Positions 3,216 to 12,014 are shown, numbered from the stretch's first letter. The stretch is 12,014 nt of DNA from Candidatus Dadabacteria bacterium (GCA_040289575.1 PSLL01000003.1:20976-32989); one strand, 5' to 3'. Notes: generated by a model not told the origin, from the sequence alone. A program made the numbers and translations.

Positions 3216-3291
<76 letters not shown>

Positions 3292-3298
3292 TCTCGAT

Positions 3299-3375
3299 GC
3301 GCCCATAGCTCAGTTGGACAGAGCAACGGCCTTCTAAGCCGTGGGTCGGGGGTTCGAATCCCTCTGGGCGCGCCA
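3299..3375 (+). tRNA. tRNA-Arg(TCT)
   Basis: Acceptor stem GCGCCCA/TGGGCGC. Anticodon arm ACGGC-CTTCTAA-GCCGT (TCT at 3333-3335). T-loop TTCGAAT. Encoded GCCA end. Confidence 0.97.
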
Positions 3376-3443: not shown

Positions 3444-4451
3444 ATGAGGGTTTTTGAGATTAAACAAGCTACGGGCATAGATGCCCTGACTCTCACTGAG
3501 AGGCCGAAGCCCAAGCCCGGCTATGGGCAGGCACTGGTGAATATAAAAGCCGTATCGCTCAACTACCGTGATTTGCTGGTGGTCAAAGGCTCATATAGTC
3601 GTAATCTACCCCTACCTCTCATCCCTTGTTCGGATGGGGTTGGCGAGGTAATTGAAGCCGGAGATGGTGTCACACGCGTCAAGAAGGGAGACCGTGTTGC
3701 CGGTATATTCATGCAGACTTGGATATCGGGAGAGCTGAATGAGAGCAAGGCAAAGTCTGCTTTGGGCGGAGCGGTTGAGGGAGTGCTTGCAGAATGTGTT
3801 TTGTTCCATGAGGACGGATTGGTACACATACCGGAGCATCTTTCTTATGAAGAGGCGGCCACATTACCCTGCGCAGCGGTCACAGCATGGAATGGGCTTA
3901 TAACCTCAGGAGGCCTGAAGCCTGGCGATACAGTGCTGATAATGGGCACGGGAGGAGTATCCATTTTTGGGCTGCAGTTTGCCAAGATTTCTGGCGCAAG
4001 GGTAATTGCCACATCCAGCAGCGATGAGAAACTGGAGAGGGTTAAACAATTGGGGGCATCCGACGGTATTAACTACAAATCAGTGCCGGATTGGGATAAG
4101 AAGGTATTGGAAATAACCGGCGGGAAAGGAGTAGATCATGTGGTTGAGGTCGGCGGCGCGGGAACGCTGACAAAATCACTTCGCGCAGTGCGTATGGGAG
4201 GACATATCAGTCTGATTGGCGTGCTTTCCGGGGCAGGAGAAGCCAATCCTTTACCGGCGGTGATGAAAAATATTCGTATTCAAGGTATCTATGTGGGTTC
4301 TCGTGAGATGTTCGAGGCAATGAACCGTGCTATTTCTATACATCAACTCCATCCGGTAATTGATCGCGTATTTTCGTTCGAAGAATCTCGGGAAGCATTC
4401 CGTTATATGGAAAGTGGTGCGCACTTTGGCAAAGTGGTTATTCGACTCTGA
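3444..4451 (+). CDS. MDR-superfamily NAD(P)-dependent oxidoreductase (quinone-reductase-like 'alcohol dehydrogenase')
   Basis: SLNYRD, PLIPCSDGVGEV, AATLPCAAVTAW, nucleotide-binding GTGGVS, C-terminal HFGKVVI. SD GGAGG upstream. No structural-zinc cysteine cluster. Confidence 0.92.
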   Translation: MRVFEIKQATGIDALTLTERPKPKPGYGQALVNIKAVSLNYRDLLVVKGSYSRNLPLPLIPCSDGVGEVIEAGDGVTRVKKGDRVAGIFMQTWISGELNESKAKSALGGAVEGVLAECVLFHEDGLVHIPEHLSYEEAATLPCAAVTAWNGLITSGGLKPGDTVLIMGTGGVSIFGLQFAKISGARVIATSSSDEKLERVKQLGASDGINYKSVPDWDKKVLEITGGKGVDHVVEVGGAGTLTKSLRAVRMGGHISLIGVLSGAGEANPLPAVMKNIRIQGIYVGSREMFEAMNRAISIHQLHPVIDRVFSFEESREAFRYMESGAHFGKVVIRL

Positions 4452-4465
4452 TATAGGCTTTCCGC

Positions 4466-4541
4466 TGTCATTGCGAGCGAAGCAATCTCCTCATTTTTCT
4501 CTGTCTTAGATTGCTTCGTCGCTTTGCTCCTTGCAATGACA
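4466..4541. repeat. Palindromic repeat element TGTCATTGCGAG...CTTGCAATGACA
   Basis: Outer inverted repeat 4466-4477/4530-4541 (one G-T pair). Inner perfect 11-bp inverted repeat CGAAGCAATCT (4478-4488)/AGATTGCTTCG (4508-4518). Confidence 0.8.
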
Positions 4542-4628
4542 TATGAGACTGTTTGCATAGATATTAATATCCTCTACAGTGAGGTTCATTGAGATTATCC
4601 AAATCAACAAAAAAATAAGGAGGGAATC

Positions 4629-5053
4629 ATGAAACGAAAAGCCTCGGCAGTTTGGAAAGGCGATCTTAAAAGCGGTAGGGGAATGATCTCAACCGATAGC
4701 GGTGTTTTATCAAATACCCAATATTCCTTCAGCACCCGATTTGAAGATGGAATCGGTACAAATCCGGAAGAACTAATAGCCGCGGCCCATGCCGGTTGTT
4801 TCTCAATGGCGCTCTCCGCACAGCTTGCCAACGCCGGTATGGTTGCGAAAGCATAAATACCACTGCCACGCTCACAATGGAAAAACTTGAGGCCGGCTGG
4901 ACTGTGACCGGAATTCATCTTGATGTAACCGCCAGGATTCCGGGTGCGGATCGAACGGCATTTGAAACGGCGGCCAAAAACGCTAAAGAGGGTTGTCCAA
5001 TTTCTCGCCTTTTGAATGCGAAGATTACGATGGACGCAAAATTGCATGGCTGA
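4629..5053 (+). pseudogene. osmC: OsmC family peroxiredoxin, frameshifted (pseudogene or sequencing error)
   Basis: N-half has [20 protein letters not shown] and ends at TAA 4854-4856. C-half [13 protein letters not shown]...[11 protein letters not shown] is in the -1 frame. Adding one base near 4847 gives a 141-aa ORF with both conserved Cys. SD AAGGAGG at 4617-4623. Confidence 0.9.
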
Positions 5054-5167
5054 CTCTGAGAGTAAAATCGAAGAGTAATGGATGAATCTCAAACCTAACA
5101 CCTATCGGTCTTAAAAAGGGCATATATCGATAATATCGCCATACTCACTATAGGGTTATCTCAAGGT

Positions 5168-5195
5168 TTGGAAGAGAGTGGAGCACGGCTATAAT
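5168..5195 (+). promoter_or_regulatory. Putative sigma70-type promoter for the DUF355 gene
   Basis: TTGGAA (5168-5173), 16 bp, TATAAT (5190-5195). Confidence 0.4.
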
Positions 5196-5308
5196 TTATA
5201 CTCTATTTGAGAGTAGGATTAGATGTCCGATCAAAGCATATAGGAAACCGATTTGTTGGCACCGCGCTTAAATTGCATAGGTTACTTAGGTTATTAAGGA
5301 GAAAGACT

Positions 5309-5794
5309 ATGGAGCTTAAAGCTGTGAAGATCCAAAAACCAGATGATGTGAACCTTATCTTAGGACAGTCCCATTTTATTAAAACGGTTGAGGATATTCA
5401 TGAGGCTCTGGTAAACACAGTCCCAGGGATAAGGTTCGGTCTTGCCTTTTGCGAATCTTCGGGTCCATGCCTTATAAGGTATAGCGGCACCGATTCTGAA
5501 CTCACCGAGTTAGCAAAGAATAACGCATTTAGTCTTTCGGCAGGTCATAGCTTTATCATATTTCTTAGGAATAGCTACCCAGTTAATGTTTTGAACGCTG
5601 TAAAGAATGTTCCGGAGGTTTGTAGAATCTTCTGTGCCACTGCGAATCCTGTTGAGGTGATCATAGTCGAGTCTGAACAGGGGAGGGGCATTGTTGGTGT
5701 CATTGATGGACTAAAATCGAAAGGGATTGAGACCGAGAAGGATATTGAGGAGAGAAAGGCATTTTTAAGAAAGATCGGATATAAGGTCGGGTAG
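5309..5794 (+). CDS. Adenosine-specific kinase family protein (DUF355)
   Basis: [64 protein letters not shown]. Start placed at ATG 5309 after SD AAGGAG (5296-5301), giving 161 aa, rather than TTG 5207. Confidence 0.9.
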
Positions 5795-5890
5795 TTTTTA
5801 CCACTTTTCCTCATCTACTTTATGCTGACGAGAGTTATAGAAGATATAAAATTCCTACGCATCGATTTTCTCTTTCAAATTGATAAGCTA

Positions 5891-5925
5891 TAAAAAGAAG
5901 CGGGCCCTTGACTCAAGGGCTCGCT
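5891..5925 (-). terminator. Intrinsic terminator oriented for minus-strand transcription (possibly bidirectional)
   Basis: Minus strand AGCGAGCCCTTG-AGT-CAAGGGCCCGCT followed by TCTTTTT. No U-tract follows the hairpin on the plus strand. Confidence 0.75.
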
Positions 5926-5979
5926 CAAAGGAAGGGAATATATCAGAATGGTGGATGTCCGGGGAGATGAAAGACACAT
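5892..5979 (-). ncRNA. Candidate ~85-nt small regulatory RNA
   Basis: Bounded by an extended -10 (TG-G-TAGCAT, 5992-5984) and the terminator. C/U-rich segments UUCAUCUCCCC and AUUCCCUUCCUUU. No SD-led ORF. Confidence 0.55.
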
Positions 5980-5983
5980 TTTT

Positions 5984-6038
5984 ATGCTACCATCCATTTG
6001 TTAAATCCATATTATGCTCTTGTTAATCTGTTGTTAAT
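5984..6038 (-). promoter_or_regulatory. Pho-box-like array plus extended -10, minus strand
   Basis: TGTTAA (minus TTAACA) at 5999, 6021 and 6032, with a 4/6 copy at 6010, in exact 11-bp phase. The proximal repeat lies 9 nt upstream of -10 TAGCAT. Confidence 0.7.
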
Positions 6039-6101
6039 TTTATATAAGTAGGGACTCGTTGCGAATAAGCTATCAACCTGAGATTGCCTTAGTGTAGTTA
6101 T

Positions 6102-6145
6102 CTAAACCTGTACTTAACGTATTCTTAATACAAAAACAACAAAAT
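6102..6145 (+). promoter_or_regulatory. Second Pho-box-like array, plus strand
   Basis: 11-bp units CTAAACCTGTA / CTTAACGTATT / CTTAATACAAA / AACAACAAAAT starting at 6102, 6113, 6124 and 6135. Confidence 0.55.
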
Positions 6146-6239
6146 CGTGTAACTATTTATTTAAAGTCAAAAAGTATTAGATAAATTGAGGAATCAGATG
6201 CTTTATGATTTGAGTGGCAACGCATGAGGAGGTCAGTGG

Positions 6240-6407
6240 ATGTGGTGGATAATATTTATGACAATCTTTGCTATATGTCTAATTGTTAAAAGCTATAATC
6301 GGTCAAAAATACCTGCAAGGCGCAAACATAAAAGATACAAATGTGAATATGACGGGTACAACTGGAATGGATACAGATGGTATGATGGATATAACTTGAA
6401 TGAATGA
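6240..6407 (+). CDS. Unannotated 55-aa single-pass membrane microprotein
   Basis: SD GAGGAGGT (6226-6233) 6 nt before ATG. Translation MWWIIFMTIFAICLIVKSYNRSKIPARRKHKRYKCEYDGYNWNGYRWYDGYNLNE. Shorter than any ORF in the supplied track. Confidence 0.65.
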   Translation: MWWIIFMTIFAICLIVKSYNRSKIPARRKHKRYKCEYDGYNWNGYRWYDGYNLNE

Positions 6408-6572
6408 GAGCCATATAAATAATCGAGTCAAAATCACAAAGGCAATAACAAGCACACCCATACTAAGTACCGGTTAGGAAAACTCTCTTTAAGAAGGTAT
6501 TTGACCCTTGTGTTTACTAAGACTTTGGTGTGCCCTTAGAAAAATCAATTAATAACTACTTACCTTATCAAA

Positions 6573-7310
6573 ATGGAAAAGGAAAAAATGGAGAACCTTA
6601 GCGCTTCAATCATTACATCCGGACGTAGGGAAGTACCTATAGCTAACACAATTATTGTTTCGGATATTCATCTTGGCTCTGATATGAGCCGAGCCAGTGA
6701 GTTAATAGATGTTCTTGACTCTTGGAGTTTTGAAAAATTGATTCTGCTTGGAGATATATTTGATGATCTGAACTTTAAAAGACTGCGTCGTCTCCATTGG
6801 GATTTTCTATCTTATATAAGGCAAATATCAAAACATAAAGAAGTTGTGTGGGTCGAAGGAAATCATGACGAAGGTCTTGTAGAGGTAGTCCCATATTTAT
6901 TGGGTGTGAAGGCGTGTAAGGAATACGTATGGGAATATAATAGGAAAGTGTGTCTTGCAATACATGGACATCAATTTGATGATTTTATAATAAATAATGG
7001 CACAATTACTGAAATAGCCTGCCGCATTTATCGTTTGACTCAAAAGATAGATACGAAGGGTTTCTACATAAGTAAGCTTCTTAAAAGGACATCAAAGAGA
7101 TATTTAAGGTTATCTAATAAAGTAGCCGATGATGCTATCTGTTACAGTATGGCTAAAGGTGCTGACTACGTTTTTTGTAGTCATACGCATCAAGCGATCT
7201 CTAAGACTGTTGATGGCATTCACTATTTTAATAGTGGATGCTGGATAGATAGGCCATCTACGTACATAACAGTAGGTGAAGATGGGGTTAGGATACGAGA
7301 GGTTGAATAA
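6573..7310 (+). CDS. Calcineurin-like metallophosphoesterase of the LpxH/YbbF/PlcP group (probable PlcP-like phospholipase C)
   Basis: SDIHLG, LLGDIFD, GNHDE, IHGHQFD, CSHTH, YFNSGCW. GNHD rather than the GNRD of enterobacterial LpxH. Alternative start ATG 6588 after AAGGA. Confidence 0.88.
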   Translation: MEKEKMENLSASIITSGRREVPIANTIIVSDIHLGSDMSRASELIDVLDSWSFEKLILLGDIFDDLNFKRLRRLHWDFLSYIRQISKHKEVVWVEGNHDEGLVEVVPYLLGVKACKEYVWEYNRKVCLAIHGHQFDDFIINNGTITEIACRIYRLTQKIDTKGFYISKLLKRTSKRYLRLSNKVADDAICYSMAKGADYVFCSHTHQAISKTVDGIHYFNSGCWIDRPSTYITVGEDGVRIREVE

Positions 7311-7421
7311 TGTAGAAATAATTATCGGCTTTCGAAAAATGCGTTTGATTATAATGGCTTTGAATTCTCTACAGAATAGATATTCCAAGATAGCAAACAT
7401 CCCGTATATAGAATAGTAAAA

Positions 7422-8636
7422 ATGAGAATTCTCCTTGCAACCGATACATACTATCCTAGCACTAATGGGGCAGCTTACTTTACATTTCGATTGGCATATT
7501 ACTTAAGTAAGTTAAAGCACAATGTCTTTGTAATTGCTCCGTCAAGAACATTAAACAATACTGTCAATTCCACCGGTGGTATTACACTCTATGGTATTAG
7601 ATCTATTCCAGTGCCACTATATCCCGGCTTTCGCTTTTCGCCGCCATTGCTGACAAGAAAATATATCCGCGAAGTCATAAGAGGTATTAAGCCGGATATT
7701 ATCCATATACAGAATCATTTTGTGATTGGGAAGGCGGTGCTTGAGGTCGCTTGCGAGATCGGTATTCCAATTATAGGAACAAACCACTTTATGCCAGAGA
7801 ATTTGATACATCATCTCCATTTGCCGGACTTTTTAGAGAGGGGACTTAAAAGACTAGCATGGCGGCAGTTTGTTAAGGTATATAGCCAGCTTTCATTTGT
7901 TACTGCTCCTACGAAAACAGCAGCGGAATTGATGTATCGGCAGGGACTGACAAAAGAAGCAGTTGTGCTCTCCTGTGGTGTTGATTTAGAGCGTTTTAAT
8001 CCAGCTAATAATGGCACCTATCTTAAGGAACGGTATCACATCCCTGATCGACCAATTATCCTGTATGTTGGGAGATTGGATAAAGAAAAAAATATCGAGG
8101 TGATTCTCAGGGCAATGCCATTGATTCTTAAAAAAACTGATGCTCGGCTTGTTTTGGCTGGTATGGGTGCATTGCGAAATCACCTAGAGGGTATAGTGCA
8201 GCAACTGTCTCTCCACAATCACACAGTTTTTACGGGGTTTGTAGGTGATGAGGACCTACCTAATTTATATAGAATTGCCGATGTCTTTGTGATTGCAGGA
8301 ACAGCAGAACTGCAGAGCATTGTGACAATGGAGGCTATGGCTTCAGCACTTCCTGTAGTTGCGGTAGACGCAGTGGCTCTCCCTGAACTCATCCATCATG
8401 GGGAAAACGGATTTCTTTTTTCTGGTGGTAATAGCCAAGCGGTTGCAGAAAGGGTTACCTGCATCTTGACCAATGAGGGGTTAAGACGCAAGATGGGTCA
8501 AAAAAGCCTTTCTCTAATACAAGTCCATGACATCAATAGGGTGGTGAAGCAGTTTGAACAGTTGTATCAAATGGCCATAGAGGCTTATTCACATACATCG
8601 GGCAAGGGCAAGAAAGTTTCACAAGGGTTTTTCTAA
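7422..8636 (+). CDS. Glycosyltransferase family 4 (probable diacylglycerol glycosyltransferase)
   Basis: MRILLATDTYYPSTNGAA, PDIIHIQ, TNHFMPEN, LYVGRLDKEKN, ELQSIVTMEAMASALPVV (E-x7-E). Confidence 0.92.
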   Translation: MRILLATDTYYPSTNGAAYFTFRLAYYLSKLKHNVFVIAPSRTLNNTVNSTGGITLYGIRSIPVPLYPGFRFSPPLLTRKYIREVIRGIKPDIIHIQNHFVIGKAVLEVACEIGIPIIGTNHFMPENLIHHLHLPDFLERGLKRLAWRQFVKVYSQLSFVTAPTKTAAELMYRQGLTKEAVVLSCGVDLERFNPANNGTYLKERYHIPDRPIILYVGRLDKEKNIEVILRAMPLILKKTDARLVLAGMGALRNHLEGIVQQLSLHNHTVFTGFVGDEDLPNLYRIADVFVIAGTAELQSIVTMEAMASALPVVAVDAVALPELIHHGENGFLFSGGNSQAVAERVTCILTNEGLRRKMGQKSLSLIQVHDINRVVKQFEQLYQMAIEAYSHTSGKGKKVSQGFF

Positions 8637-9687: not shown

Positions 9688-9763
9688 GGTGGGTGTAGCT
9701 CAGATTGGTCAGAGCGTCGGGTTGTGGCCCCGAAGGTCGCCGGTTCAAGTCCGGTCATCCACC
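9688..9763 (+). tRNA. tRNA-His(GTG)
   Basis: G-1 at 9688. Acceptor GTGGGTG/CATCCAC with discriminator C. Anticodon arm TCGGG-TTGTGGC-CCCGA (GTG at 9724-9726). T-loop TTCAAGT. Followed by CCT, so CCA is not fully encoded. Confidence 0.96.
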
Positions 9764-9787: not shown

Positions 9788-10966
9788 CTACGTTCTGTAC
9801 TGTGCATTGAGCTTCAGATAATCCATAGTTATATCACTTGCGATTACGAAATAACTTGACTTTCCGCCTTTTAGGTCTAGCGTGATTGTGAAGCTAGGGC
9901 TTCTAAGGATATGGTTTACTCTGCTCTCGTCCATTATCTCCGCGCCGTTTTTTACGATCCTATGATCTCCAAAGTACAAGTCTACTTTTAATGGATCGAA
10001 TTTAACCCCGGCCCGACCTGCCGCCGCAAGCACTCGCCCCCAGTTTGCGTCCTCTCCGTAAAGGGCGGTTTTCACAAGGAGCGAAGAGCCGATTGTGCGT
10101 GAGATTTTCTCCGCGTCTTTTCTATTTTTTGCTCCTTTTACTATAATCCTCACGACCTTTGTCGCTCCTTCCCCATCACGCACAATCATCTCGGCAACCT
10201 CTGTGGTGAGTTCGGTAAGAGCCTTTTCGAGTTTTCTATAATTTTTATCTCCGACTTTTATCAGCCTGTTCTCCAATGTGCCGTTTGATAGCATGAGTAC
10301 CGTATCATTTGTAGACATATCACCGTCAACTATAATTCTATTAAATGAAACATCTACCGCGTTTTTAAGTGCAATTTTTTGGGCTTTCCGGTCAATGTTA
10401 ATGTCAGTGAGAATAAAGCAGAGCATTGTAGCCATATAGGGGGCAATCATTCCCGCTCCTTTTCCAATGGCGCAGATTGTTCCGGTTTTCCCGTCAACCC
10501 TGATTTGCGCTTCTGCGTACTTGGGAAACCTATCTGTTGTCATTATGGCTTCTGCAGTATTCGATAGTCCGTCTTCGCTTAACTCTGAGACTAGGTTGGG
10601 AATTGCGCTTTTAATCTTTTCCATATTTAAGTAAACCCCTATCACACCCGTTGATGAAGGAATAACAAGAGATTCATCAATCTTAAGCTCATTGGCTACG
10701 AGTTTTGCTGTAAGGTTTGCGTCCTTTAGACCCCTCTTTCCTGTGCCTACATTGGCGTTTCCGCTATTTATGACGATTGCCTGACAGTATCCGCTTTTTA
10801 CTCTTTCCATTCCTAAGAGGACAGGAGCTGCTTTTACAACGTTAGTCGTAAAAACCCCCGATACCTTTGCCGGAACCTTCGAAAATATAAGACCCAAGTC
10901 CTTTCTCCCATTCTTCTTTATACCCGAAGATATACCGCACCCAAGAAATCCCGGAACCTTAATCAT
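9788..10966 (-). CDS. argJ: Ornithine acetyltransferase / N-acetylglutamate synthase ArgJ
   Basis: INSGNAN, SSTGVIG, AIMTTD, KGAGMIAPYMATML, VDGDMSTND, RDGEGATK, DANWGR, C-terminal YRT. Confidence 0.97.
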   Translation of the reverse strand: MIKVPGFLGCGISSGIKKNGRKDLGLIFSKVPAKVSGVFTTNVVKAAPVLLGMERVKSGYCQAIVINSGNANVGTGKRGLKDANLTAKLVANELKIDESLVIPSSTGVIGVYLNMEKIKSAIPNLVSELSEDGLSNTAEAIMTTDRFPKYAEAQIRVDGKTGTICAIGKGAGMIAPYMATMLCFILTDINIDRKAQKIALKNAVDVSFNRIIVDGDMSTNDTVLMLSNGTLENRLIKVGDKNYRKLEKALTELTTEVAEMIVRDGEGATKVVRIIVKGAKNRKDAEKISRTIGSSLLVKTALYGEDANWGRVLAAAGRAGVKFDPLKVDLYFGDHRIVKNGAEIMDESRVNHILRSPSFTITLDLKGGKSSYFVIASDITMDYLKLNAQYRT

Positions 10967-11684
10967 TCTTTATCTCCTCTAAAAATTTATATGACCTAAT
11001 CTCCTTTCCCGTGTGATACTCGGTGAATTTTATTAGGAATTTTATATAGTCAAAAGACGTTTCTAAATCCCGGTTTGAGAAATCTATTAAATCCCTTTGT
11101 ATAAGAAGACCCTTCGGCACCCTAAATCCATTCGGCTCATTCTTTCTGCAGCCGTTGCAGAGGATACCGCCTTTTTGGATGCTAAAGAAGGCATCTCCTT
11201 CTATCGAGTCTCCACATCTTGCACAGATGCAGACATCGAAATCCGGTTTATATCCGGATAGAGAAAGGGCGGAGAGTTGAAATTTTATAACTACAGACAA
11301 AGGGCTTTTCTTGGAGTTTAAATCGGATAGGGCTTGAACCAGAATCTCAAACATCTTTTCATTGGGTTCCTCTTCGGGAATAAGGGCGTCTATGTTCTCT
11401 AGGATAAAACTCCCCCATGTAAAAAGTCCTATATCTTCCATAAGAGACAAGAACACTTCTACAGTCTCTGAGTCATCAATAAACTTCATCTTACCTGGTC
11501 TCTCGTGAAACCTCACACGTAGATGCACAAACGGCTCAAGCCTTCCTCCGAACCGCTTTCTACTCTTTTTTGCATTTTTTGCAAGTCCCCTTATCTTTCC
11601 AAAATCCTTGGTGAGGAGAATAAGTATATAATCTGCCTCACCGTGCTCGATTTTACGAATGAGAAACGCTTCAGAGGCTTTCAT
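10959..11684 (-). CDS. recO: DNA repair protein RecO
   Basis: GEADYILILLTKDFGKIRGLAKNAKKSRKRFGGRLEPF and zinc finger CARC...GGILCNGC. Its stop overlaps the argJ start by 8 nt. Confidence 0.95.
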   Translation of the reverse strand: MKASEAFLIRKIEHGEADYILILLTKDFGKIRGLAKNAKKSRKRFGGRLEPFVHLRVRFHERPGKMKFIDDSETVEVFLSLMEDIGLFTWGSFILENIDALIPEEEPNEKMFEILVQALSDLNSKKSPLSVVIKFQLSALSLSGYKPDFDVCICARCGDSIEGDAFFSIQKGGILCNGCRKNEPNGFRVPKGLLIQRDLIDFSNRDLETSFDYIKFLIKFTEYHTGKEIRSYKFLEEIKND

Positions 11685-11701
11685 TGGGTTTATTAAATAC
11701 T

Positions 11702-11822
11702 TTTAGCCACGAATATAAGAAATCAGGATACAGAATACAAGAAACAGAAAACAGGATATATGGACTTAAGGTTTTTCCCTTTATTTTTCTGTTTGTATAT
11801 ATTCGTGTCCATTTGTGGCGAA
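11702..11822. repeat. Palindromic intergenic repeat (copy 2) enclosing heptamer tandem repeats
   Basis: TTTAGCCACGAATA (11702-11715) ... TATTCGTGTCCATTTGTGGCGAA (11800-11822). Inside are CAGGATA CAGAATA CAAGAAA CAGAAAA CAGGATA (11724-11758). Confidence 0.75.
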
Positions 11823-11829
11823 TTAATCT

Positions 11830-12014
11830 TTAAAAAATAACCGTAGCAATAAGTAGATAAACAATTGACCCAAAAATATCGTTAAACATTGTAACAAAAG
11901 GGCCGCAGGCCGCAGCCGGATCGAATTTTAGTTTATGTAAGACAAGCGGTTCAGCCGCCCCCATAAATGCGGTTGCAATGGTCGCGGAAGACATAGCTAT
12001 AAAAATGGAAAGTG
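11830..12014 (-). CDS. mgtE: Magnesium transporter MgtE, C-terminal fragment (5' end outside the window)
   Basis: Manual translation LSIFIAMSSATIATAFMGAAEPLVLHKLKFDPAAACGPFVTMFNDIFGSIVYLLIATVIF* resembles the MgtE DPA..SGPF.T...D..G motif. Stop at 11832-11830. Missed by the ORF track. Confidence 0.88.
   Translation of the reverse strand, partial: LSIFIAMSSATIATAFMGAAEPLVLHKLKFDPAAACGPFVTMFNDIFGSIVYLLIATVIF

Follow-up and report, generated by a model that had tools for sequence, protein, structure and literature searches.

The window analysed in this work is a stretch of 12,014 nucleotides from a Candidatus Dadabacteria bacterium (GCA_040289575.1, PSLL01000003.1:20976-32989). It contains an intergenic gap that separates a plus-strand gene of the adenosine-kinase family (PF04008, 5207-5794) from an operon on the same strand. 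The genome containing the window (hereafter G000) has 3.06 Mb in 126 contigs, with 44% G+C, and belongs to a genus of three species, of which the two congeners are designated G001 and G002. On the minus strand of the gap, between positions 6037 and 5892, lies an arrangement of four boxes, a TG, a -10 hexamer, a body and a terminator, which we call the sRNA unit. Its parts and those of the neighbouring operon are the following:

5892..5899, minus strand: U-tract UUCUUUUU, directly after the terminator hairpin
5900..5924, minus strand: terminator hairpin GCGAGCCCUUG-AGU-CAAGGGCCCGC, with an A5921/C5903 mismatch in the stem
5925..5977, minus strand: pyrimidine-rich, G-poor body of 53 nt, with the motifs AUCUCCCC, CAUCCACCA and UUCCCUUCCUUU
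5892..5977, minus strand: predicted sRNA of ~85 nt, delimited from the promoter geometry and the terminator
5984..5992, minus strand: extended -10, formed by TG (5992-5991), one base and TAGCAT (5989-5984)
5999..6004, minus strand: Pho-type box 4, TTAACA; the -10 starts 9 nt past it
6010..6015, minus strand: Pho-type box 3, ATAATA, degenerate; ATAACG in G001 and CTAACA in the G002 copies
6021..6026, minus strand: Pho-type box 2, TTAACA; TTAATG in the G002 copies
6032..6037, minus strand: Pho-type box 1, TTAACA, part of an array scoring 22/24; invariant in five of five copies
6114..6167, plus strand: candidate second, divergent Pho-type promoter, with TTAACG, TTAATA, ACAACA and GTGTAA in 11-bp phase
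6240..6407, plus strand: gene for a small membrane protein of 55 aa, preceded by a strong SD; first in the divergent operon
6573..8636, plus strand: plcP-agt-like pair, a metallophosphoesterase (6573-7310) and a GT4 glycosyltransferase (7422-8636)

The four boxes of the sRNA unit start at 6037, 6026, 6015 and 6004, and are thus in exact 11-bp phase. An earlier note on this DNA, made from the sequence alone, had described TTAACA-type repeats with one degenerate member followed by a TG-extended -10, and both elements are present on the minus strand at 6037-5999 and at 5992-5984, respectively. The C/U-rich stretch that it had estimated at about 55 nt measures 53 nt (5977-5925), with 72% pyrimidine and only six G, and the hairpin with its A-C mismatch and the U-tract follow immediately. 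A terminator scan called the hairpin at 5924-5900 on the minus strand only; on its plus-strand side, the next sequence is TCAAAGGAAGG, which has no T-run. In addition, the gene calls made on the window gave no minus-strand gene ending at this terminator within the gap, in agreement with the earlier note. The 5' end of the RNA is predicted at 5977 +/- 2, 7 nt past the -10, and its 3' end would fall within the U-tract. In the predicted fold of the G000 RNA, the body is unpaired except for a 5' hairpin that is not conserved. This hairpin (GUGUCU/GGACAU) had been proposed to expose a loop; in the minimum-free-energy folds it forms in G000 only, and the congener's copy lacks it. As a feature of the family, the 5' hairpin with an exposed loop was rejected because it is not conserved across the folds of the copies.

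To evaluate the box array as a genomic signal, every position of the G000 genome was scored on both strands against four TTAACA. With the 11-bp spacing, seven positions, which correspond to six arrays, reached at least 20/24. Spacings of 8, 9, 10, 12, 13 and 14 bp gave no position at this score in the same genome, and ten first-order Markov genomes gave a single position in total (~0.1 per genome). Since no arrays appeared at the six other spacings and only about 0.1 were obtained per simulated genome, the boxes cannot be attributed to chance. Furthermore, in five of the six arrays a -10-like hexamer (TAGAGT, TAACAT, TAGCAT, TAAAAT and TAAGAT) is located at exactly 9 nt past box 4. When a -10 at 9 nt was required, nine sites scoring at least 17/24 were obtained in G000, the sRNA unit included; the same geometry applied to six simulated genomes returned 1.2 sites per genome, all of which scored exactly 17. 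Among the nine sites, only that of the sRNA unit has a strong terminator within 100 nt (at +87, -18.6 kcal/mol). No paralogues of the unit were found within G000, where the other arrays have no strong terminator nearby.

The other eight sites, given as contig and position in G000, are the following:

C9, 12161: pstS-pstC-pstA-pstB, a low-molecular-weight phosphatase-like gene, a metallophosphoesterase and phoU downstream
C25, 37588: PhoH downstream
C69, 5548: PF04185 phosphoesterase downstream
C69, 10365: type I phosphodiesterase (two adjoining ORFs) downstream, followed by a phosphate-selective porin O/P (weak match)
C69, 3815: metallophosphoesterase downstream
C69, 2029: 69-aa ORF and nitroreductase downstream
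C9, 6187: small proteins with no family match and a heavy-metal P-type ATPase downstream
C19, 22603: the remaining site

Clear phosphate genes are found downstream of four of these eight sites, and a metallophosphoesterase downstream of one more. The PstS, PstC, PstA, PstB and PhoU proteins encoded on C9 are all above the NCBIfam equivalog cut-offs. Four of the eight sites, all on C69, lie within ~5.5 kb of the best PhoB-like/PhoR-like pair of the genome, whose members fall below the respective NCBIfam cut-offs (PhoB-like, C69:7377-8081, 243 bits against 296; PhoR-like, C69:5599-7368, 302 bits against 334). In G001 and G002, the pstS array is kept nearly letter for letter. Since the array stands upstream of Pho genes and its pstS version is maintained in the congeners, we take it as the predicted binding site of a Pho regulator. 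The Pho-box reading of the repeats advanced in the earlier note is borne out in this respect, as the array with its -10 at 9 nt precedes pstSCAB-phoU, phoH, the PF04185 phosphoesterase, and the phosphodiesterase and porin pair. On this regulon evidence, the promoter of the sRNA unit is very probably Pho-regulated.

Two regions of this set present additional peculiarities. Contig C69:1-14000 resembles a "Pho island", in which the PhoB-like/PhoR-like pair is flanked by the arrays at 2029, 3815, 5548 and 10365. The phosphodiesterase located there consists of two adjoining ORFs (10430-11089 and 11086-12009), possibly as the result of a frameshift. On C9, at ~6187 on the minus strand, a five-box array directly after phoU is followed by a leader of ~150 nt, C/A-rich at its start, and then by three small proteins with no family match, whose translations contain hydrophobic stretches, the heavy-metal P-type ATPase and a CDF transporter. 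One would not expect this P-type ATPase/CDF group in a Pho regulon.

The search of the G000 gap against 40 relatives by blastn showed matches only in the two congeners. Altogether, the sRNA unit is present in five copies in the three species of the genus (3/3), in four gene neighbourhoods, and the congener matches keep the promoter-body-terminator arrangement, as the earlier note's reading of the gap would have it. The unit is therefore conserved as a module. The stretch of G001 that aligns to the G000 gap has a mean column identity of 81%, and in that genome the copy also lies beside the metallophosphoesterase/GT4 operon. On the far side, on the other hand, G001 has two tRNA genes and no kinase gene, so that the hairpin goes together with the boxes rather than with the kinase. 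G002 contains three copies, on contigs C201, C154 and C140, and the metallophosphoesterase/GT4 operon is absent from each of these 4.5-6-kb contigs. Their neighbours, named by reading the translations, include an MntR/MntH-like pair and a Dps-like gene, among others.

Some further differences between the congeners were observed. The region 3444-5794 of the window, with a zinc-type alcohol dehydrogenase, a minus-strand ORF of 165 aa and the adenosine-kinase-family gene, has no counterpart at the same place in G001 (contig C22), where the tRNA genes abut the sRNA unit; an indel of ~2.4 kb thus separates the two genomes at this place. The window itself carries three plus-strand tRNA genes, at 3216-3372 and 9689-9763, with 63-73% G+C compared with 44% for the genome. 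In G002, the copies on C154 and C140 share an identical upstream flank of 200 nt; both contigs begin at the same base of this flank, which encodes the start of a small divergent gene, ribbon-helix-helix-like as read from its translation. These two copies are a recent duplication, at which the assembly probably broke. Their inner terminator stems are almost wholly different in sequence, and yet they pair.

In the alignment of the five copies, the invariant elements are box 1, most of boxes 2 to 4, the TG and the outer stem of the terminator (GCGAG/CUCGC), and the -10 hexamer conforms to (T/C)AnnAT in all five. The inner stems have different sequences among the copies and still pair when each RNA is folded separately. 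They differ by indels and are out of register in the MAFFT alignment, for which reason stem conservation was judged from the separate folds. The folding z-scores of the whole RNAs against shuffled sequences ranged from -2.9 to -6.1 across the copies. The bodies, of 53, 55, 38, 33 and 33 nt, are all poor in G, with one to six G in 33-55 nt. Three of them are 72-74% pyrimidine, and the two with 55-58% are G002 copies. Ahead of the terminator, the bodies are predicted to be unpaired, apart from short, non-conserved pairing in G000 and G001. Their sequence conservation is weak, with a G000/G001 type set against the G002 types, and only short motifs are common, namely AUC(C/U)(U/C)CC near the 5' end and CCUUC(C).

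Outside the genus, the unit was not found with any of the searches applied. A covariance model built from the five copies recovered only its five training sequences among 15 genomes of the family, and with this model the unit was absent from the 12 genomes that represent eight other genera (12/12). When 185,579 species genomes were scanned for the pattern, the four loci of the relatives were the only ones obtained, and two pattern scans of JGI metagenome contigs gave no match. No RNA run was listed for 5200-7400 of the window, and the contigs of four DNA runs contained either the identical sequence or a G001-like relative over 5963-6037, and no variants useful for covariation. Because the family is confined to one genus, the evidence for its conservation comes from few and related sequences. 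In Rfam, the region 5860-6060 matched ylbH best (plus strand), at 18 bits where the threshold is 50; the remaining matches reached at most 17.3 bits, with thresholds of 39-60, and the relatives' copies had no match. No match came near a gathering threshold, so that the earlier impression of a family not previously known holds. Given this result, we consider the unit a new family, although the kind of regulator is already known.

On the other strand, the operon beginning with the small ORF presents its own candidate promoter, whose boxes (6114-6152) are followed after 9 nt by TAAAGT (6162-6167). It scores 16/24, close to what chance would give (eight such sites observed versus 4.5 expected). 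Boxes 1 to 3 of this promoter are kept in G001 and also in a more distant relative (L016) that has no sRNA unit. The 55-aa ORF is a real gene judging from its conservation, with 33 of 57 residues identical in G001. Its product has a hydrophobic N-terminus and a tail rich in Tyr, Trp and Asn (...WNGYRWYDGYNL), and showed no family match in Pfam or NCBIfam. The metallophosphoesterase-then-GT4 order resembles the "type 2" plcP-agt arrangement in the available part of PMC4796936, a likeness of gene order; the same portion of that paper describes putative Pho boxes for the plcP-agt arrangement.

The interpretation that best accounts for these observations is that positions 6037-5892 of the minus strand are a free-standing gene for a non-coding RNA of ~85 nt that would belong to the Pho regulon and would probably act by pairing with ribosome-binding sites. 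We give this reading, as a whole, a probability of roughly 60%. Its parts differ in strength. That a discrete non-coding RNA is made from the unit appears likely from the promoter-to-terminator geometry. Since the unit carries the same four-repeat signal as the phosphate-uptake genes, this RNA would probably be a regulator of the phosphate-starvation response. The pairing with ribosome-binding sites is more tentative, and we would put it slightly below an even chance.

Under the proposed mechanism, phosphate limitation would lead a PhoB-like regulator, for which the product of C69:7377-8081 is the best candidate in G000, to bind the four 11-bp-phased boxes. Promoters in which phased boxes for a response regulator replace the -35 element form a class that depends on an activator. 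In the same manner, the four TTAACA boxes would stand in for the -35 element, and the bound regulator would recruit RNA polymerase to the TG-extended -10. Transcription would start near 5977 and stop at the hairpin and U-tract (5924-5892). The unpaired, G-poor and pyrimidine-rich body could then pair with purine-rich ribosome-binding regions of mRNAs and lower their translation. An accessible body that is rich in C and U and poor in G is what is expected of an RNA that pairs with such regions.

The search for targets did not single out any mRNA by this mode of action. When ~6,900 candidate start regions were scanned for duplexes, the real sRNA performed no better than three shuffled RNAs (1st percentiles of -31.8 kcal/mol for the real sequence versus -32.6, -30.6 and -32.5 kcal/mol for the shuffled ones). 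An anti-SD mode of action is plausible but receives no support from the start-region duplex scan. The best exact complement, of 16 nt, lies at C90:7955-7970 of G000 and matches the 3'-proximal motif AAAGGAAGGGAAUAUA of the sRNA. It falls inside the coding region of a 196-aa ORF and not at its start; the N-terminus of this ORF, by reading, is lipoprotein-like. About 0.05 matches of this kind are expected by chance, so it is retained as a lead only.

These results bear on an alternative in which the short RNA is real, yet is not a trans-acting anti-SD regulator. It could act locally, for instance on the mRNA of the divergent small ORF or through interference by convergent transcription. Other possibilities are that it binds a protein or that it is a functionless by-product of a bidirectional PhoB site. 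The lack of a target signal above the shuffled controls and the weak conservation of the body across the genus are both in line with such a role. So is the complementarity, over 8-9 nt in G000, between CAUCCACCA and codons 2-4 (UGGUGGAU) of the small ORF at 6240, an 8-nt match that is also seen, by eye, in G001. However, this complementarity is within chance (~0.04 expected per gene, with an 8-mer present in two of ten neighbouring genes). Moreover, the 4.5-6-kb contigs of the three G002 copies all lack the metallophosphoesterase/GT4 operon, and the convergent neighbour in G001 is a tRNA gene instead of the kinase. We regard a local or other role as unlikely.

A second alternative assigns the boxes to the divergent plus-strand operon only and the hairpin to the upstream plus-strand gene, as its terminator, with no minus-strand unit at all. 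For the hairpin, this possibility had been raised in the earlier note itself. The weaker box array that faces the operon lies 77 bp from the boxes of the sRNA unit, and the plus-strand stem has a G-U pair where the minus strand has A/C; in G002, the stems are preceded by an A-run and followed by a T-run, so these hairpins could terminate transcription in both directions. Nevertheless, no plus-strand T-run follows the hairpin in G000 or in G001, the terminator scan makes its call for the minus strand only, and in G001, where the kinase gene is absent and the flank is a tRNA gene, the hairpin is still with the boxes. The minus-strand -10 stands 9 nt past box 4, as at pstS and seven other arrays, and G002 has three full units on contigs that lack the operon. 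We consider this explanation improbable.

The least credible of the alternatives, in which the unit would code for a small peptide, leaderless or poorly initiated, was rejected. The predicted start site of G000 offers an AUG and a GUG (a 34-codon frame from AUG 5979 and a 29-codon frame from GUG 5977), but neither G001 nor any of the three G002 copies has an ATG or GTG at the matching place. The five copies have no start codon or frame in common, there is no SD, and the differences in body length are not multiples of three.

Returning to the reading of the unit as a Pho-regulated non-coding RNA, several known systems can be compared with it. The C-rich anti-SD sRNAs of the RsaE/RoxS type, from Firmicutes, have unpaired C/U-rich motifs that are proposed to pair with G-rich ribosome-binding sites. 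The body described here has similar unpaired C/U-rich motifs, whereas regulation and lineage differ, and the Rfam scan gave no family of this type at E-values up to 10. In architecture, the closest analogues are the csRNAs of Streptococcus, which depend on CiaR. As far as the available text of PMC3091779 goes, their genes were predicted in intergenic regions from the direct repeat of a response regulator, a -10 and a terminator; they contain anti-SD and anti-AUG stretches and occur in two to six copies per genome. The sRNA unit shares with them, on the basis of that text, an OmpR-family-type direct repeat that substitutes for the -35, a -10, a short predicted RNA with an intrinsic terminator, the intergenic location, an unpaired stretch of putative complementarity to SD sequences and the presence of several copies per genome (three in G002). 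By the same account, csRNAs use CiaR and two TTTAAG repeats, in contrast to the four TTAACA tied to Pho genes here, and they have two stem-loops and belong to an unrelated lineage, whereas only the terminator hairpin is conserved in the present family. No csRNA family was among the Rfam matches at E-values up to 10.

In regulation, the closest systems in the partial texts at hand are PsiR1 and PhoS. PsiR1 of Synechocystis 6803 has tetrameric Pho boxes of 8 bp with a 3-bp spacer, that is, an 11-bp period, as given in the available part of PMC4195498. According to this source, its core, PyTTAAPyPy(T/A), is close to the TTAACA found here, and in both systems the same boxes precede pstS. PsiR1 is, in that description, ~500-600 nt long, co-transcribed with a downstream gene and possibly peptide-encoding, whereas the RNA predicted here is ~85 nt and free-standing. 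The boxes of PsiR1 are placed 61-182 nt upstream of the start sites, in contrast to the present boxes, which abut the -10. PhoS, from Bacillus velezensis and B. subtilis, is described in the accessible portion of PMC11522486 as an sRNA induced by phosphate starvation and stimulated by the Pho response regulator. Compared by that description, PhoS derives from the 3' UTR of phoPR, unlike the present unit, which has its own promoter and lies on another contig than the PhoB-like and PhoR-like genes.

A more speculative extension is that these genus-specific, multi-copy RNAs, activated by PhoB and bearing anti-SD-like motifs, are general competitors for ribosome-binding sites, associated in G000 and G001 with a lipid-remodelling operon. 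We think this quite unlikely. If it were true, the motifs AUC(C/U)(U/C)CC and CCUUCC would resemble the anti-SD of the 16S rRNA, and general translation initiation would be throttled, so that the largest phosphorus sink of the cell would be cut when phosphate is exhausted. The RNAs of G000 and G001 would then act together with the divergent operon for the remodelling of membrane lipids.

According to the consulted part of PMC11522486, the regulators known for phosphorus metabolism in bacteria are nearly all proteins, and we found few RNA regulators of the phosphate response in the literature. The value of the present finding is limited by the narrow distribution of the family, which is restricted to one genus. 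Within that scope, the sRNA unit offers a clean candidate for a phosphate-response RNA from an uncultured lineage. It also comes with the first computational definition of a Pho box for this lineage, consisting of four TTAACA in 11-bp phase with a -10 nine nt after the last one, and with an outline of its core Pho regulon. The signature formed by this promoter together with a terminator could serve to find similar RNAs in other uncultured bacteria.
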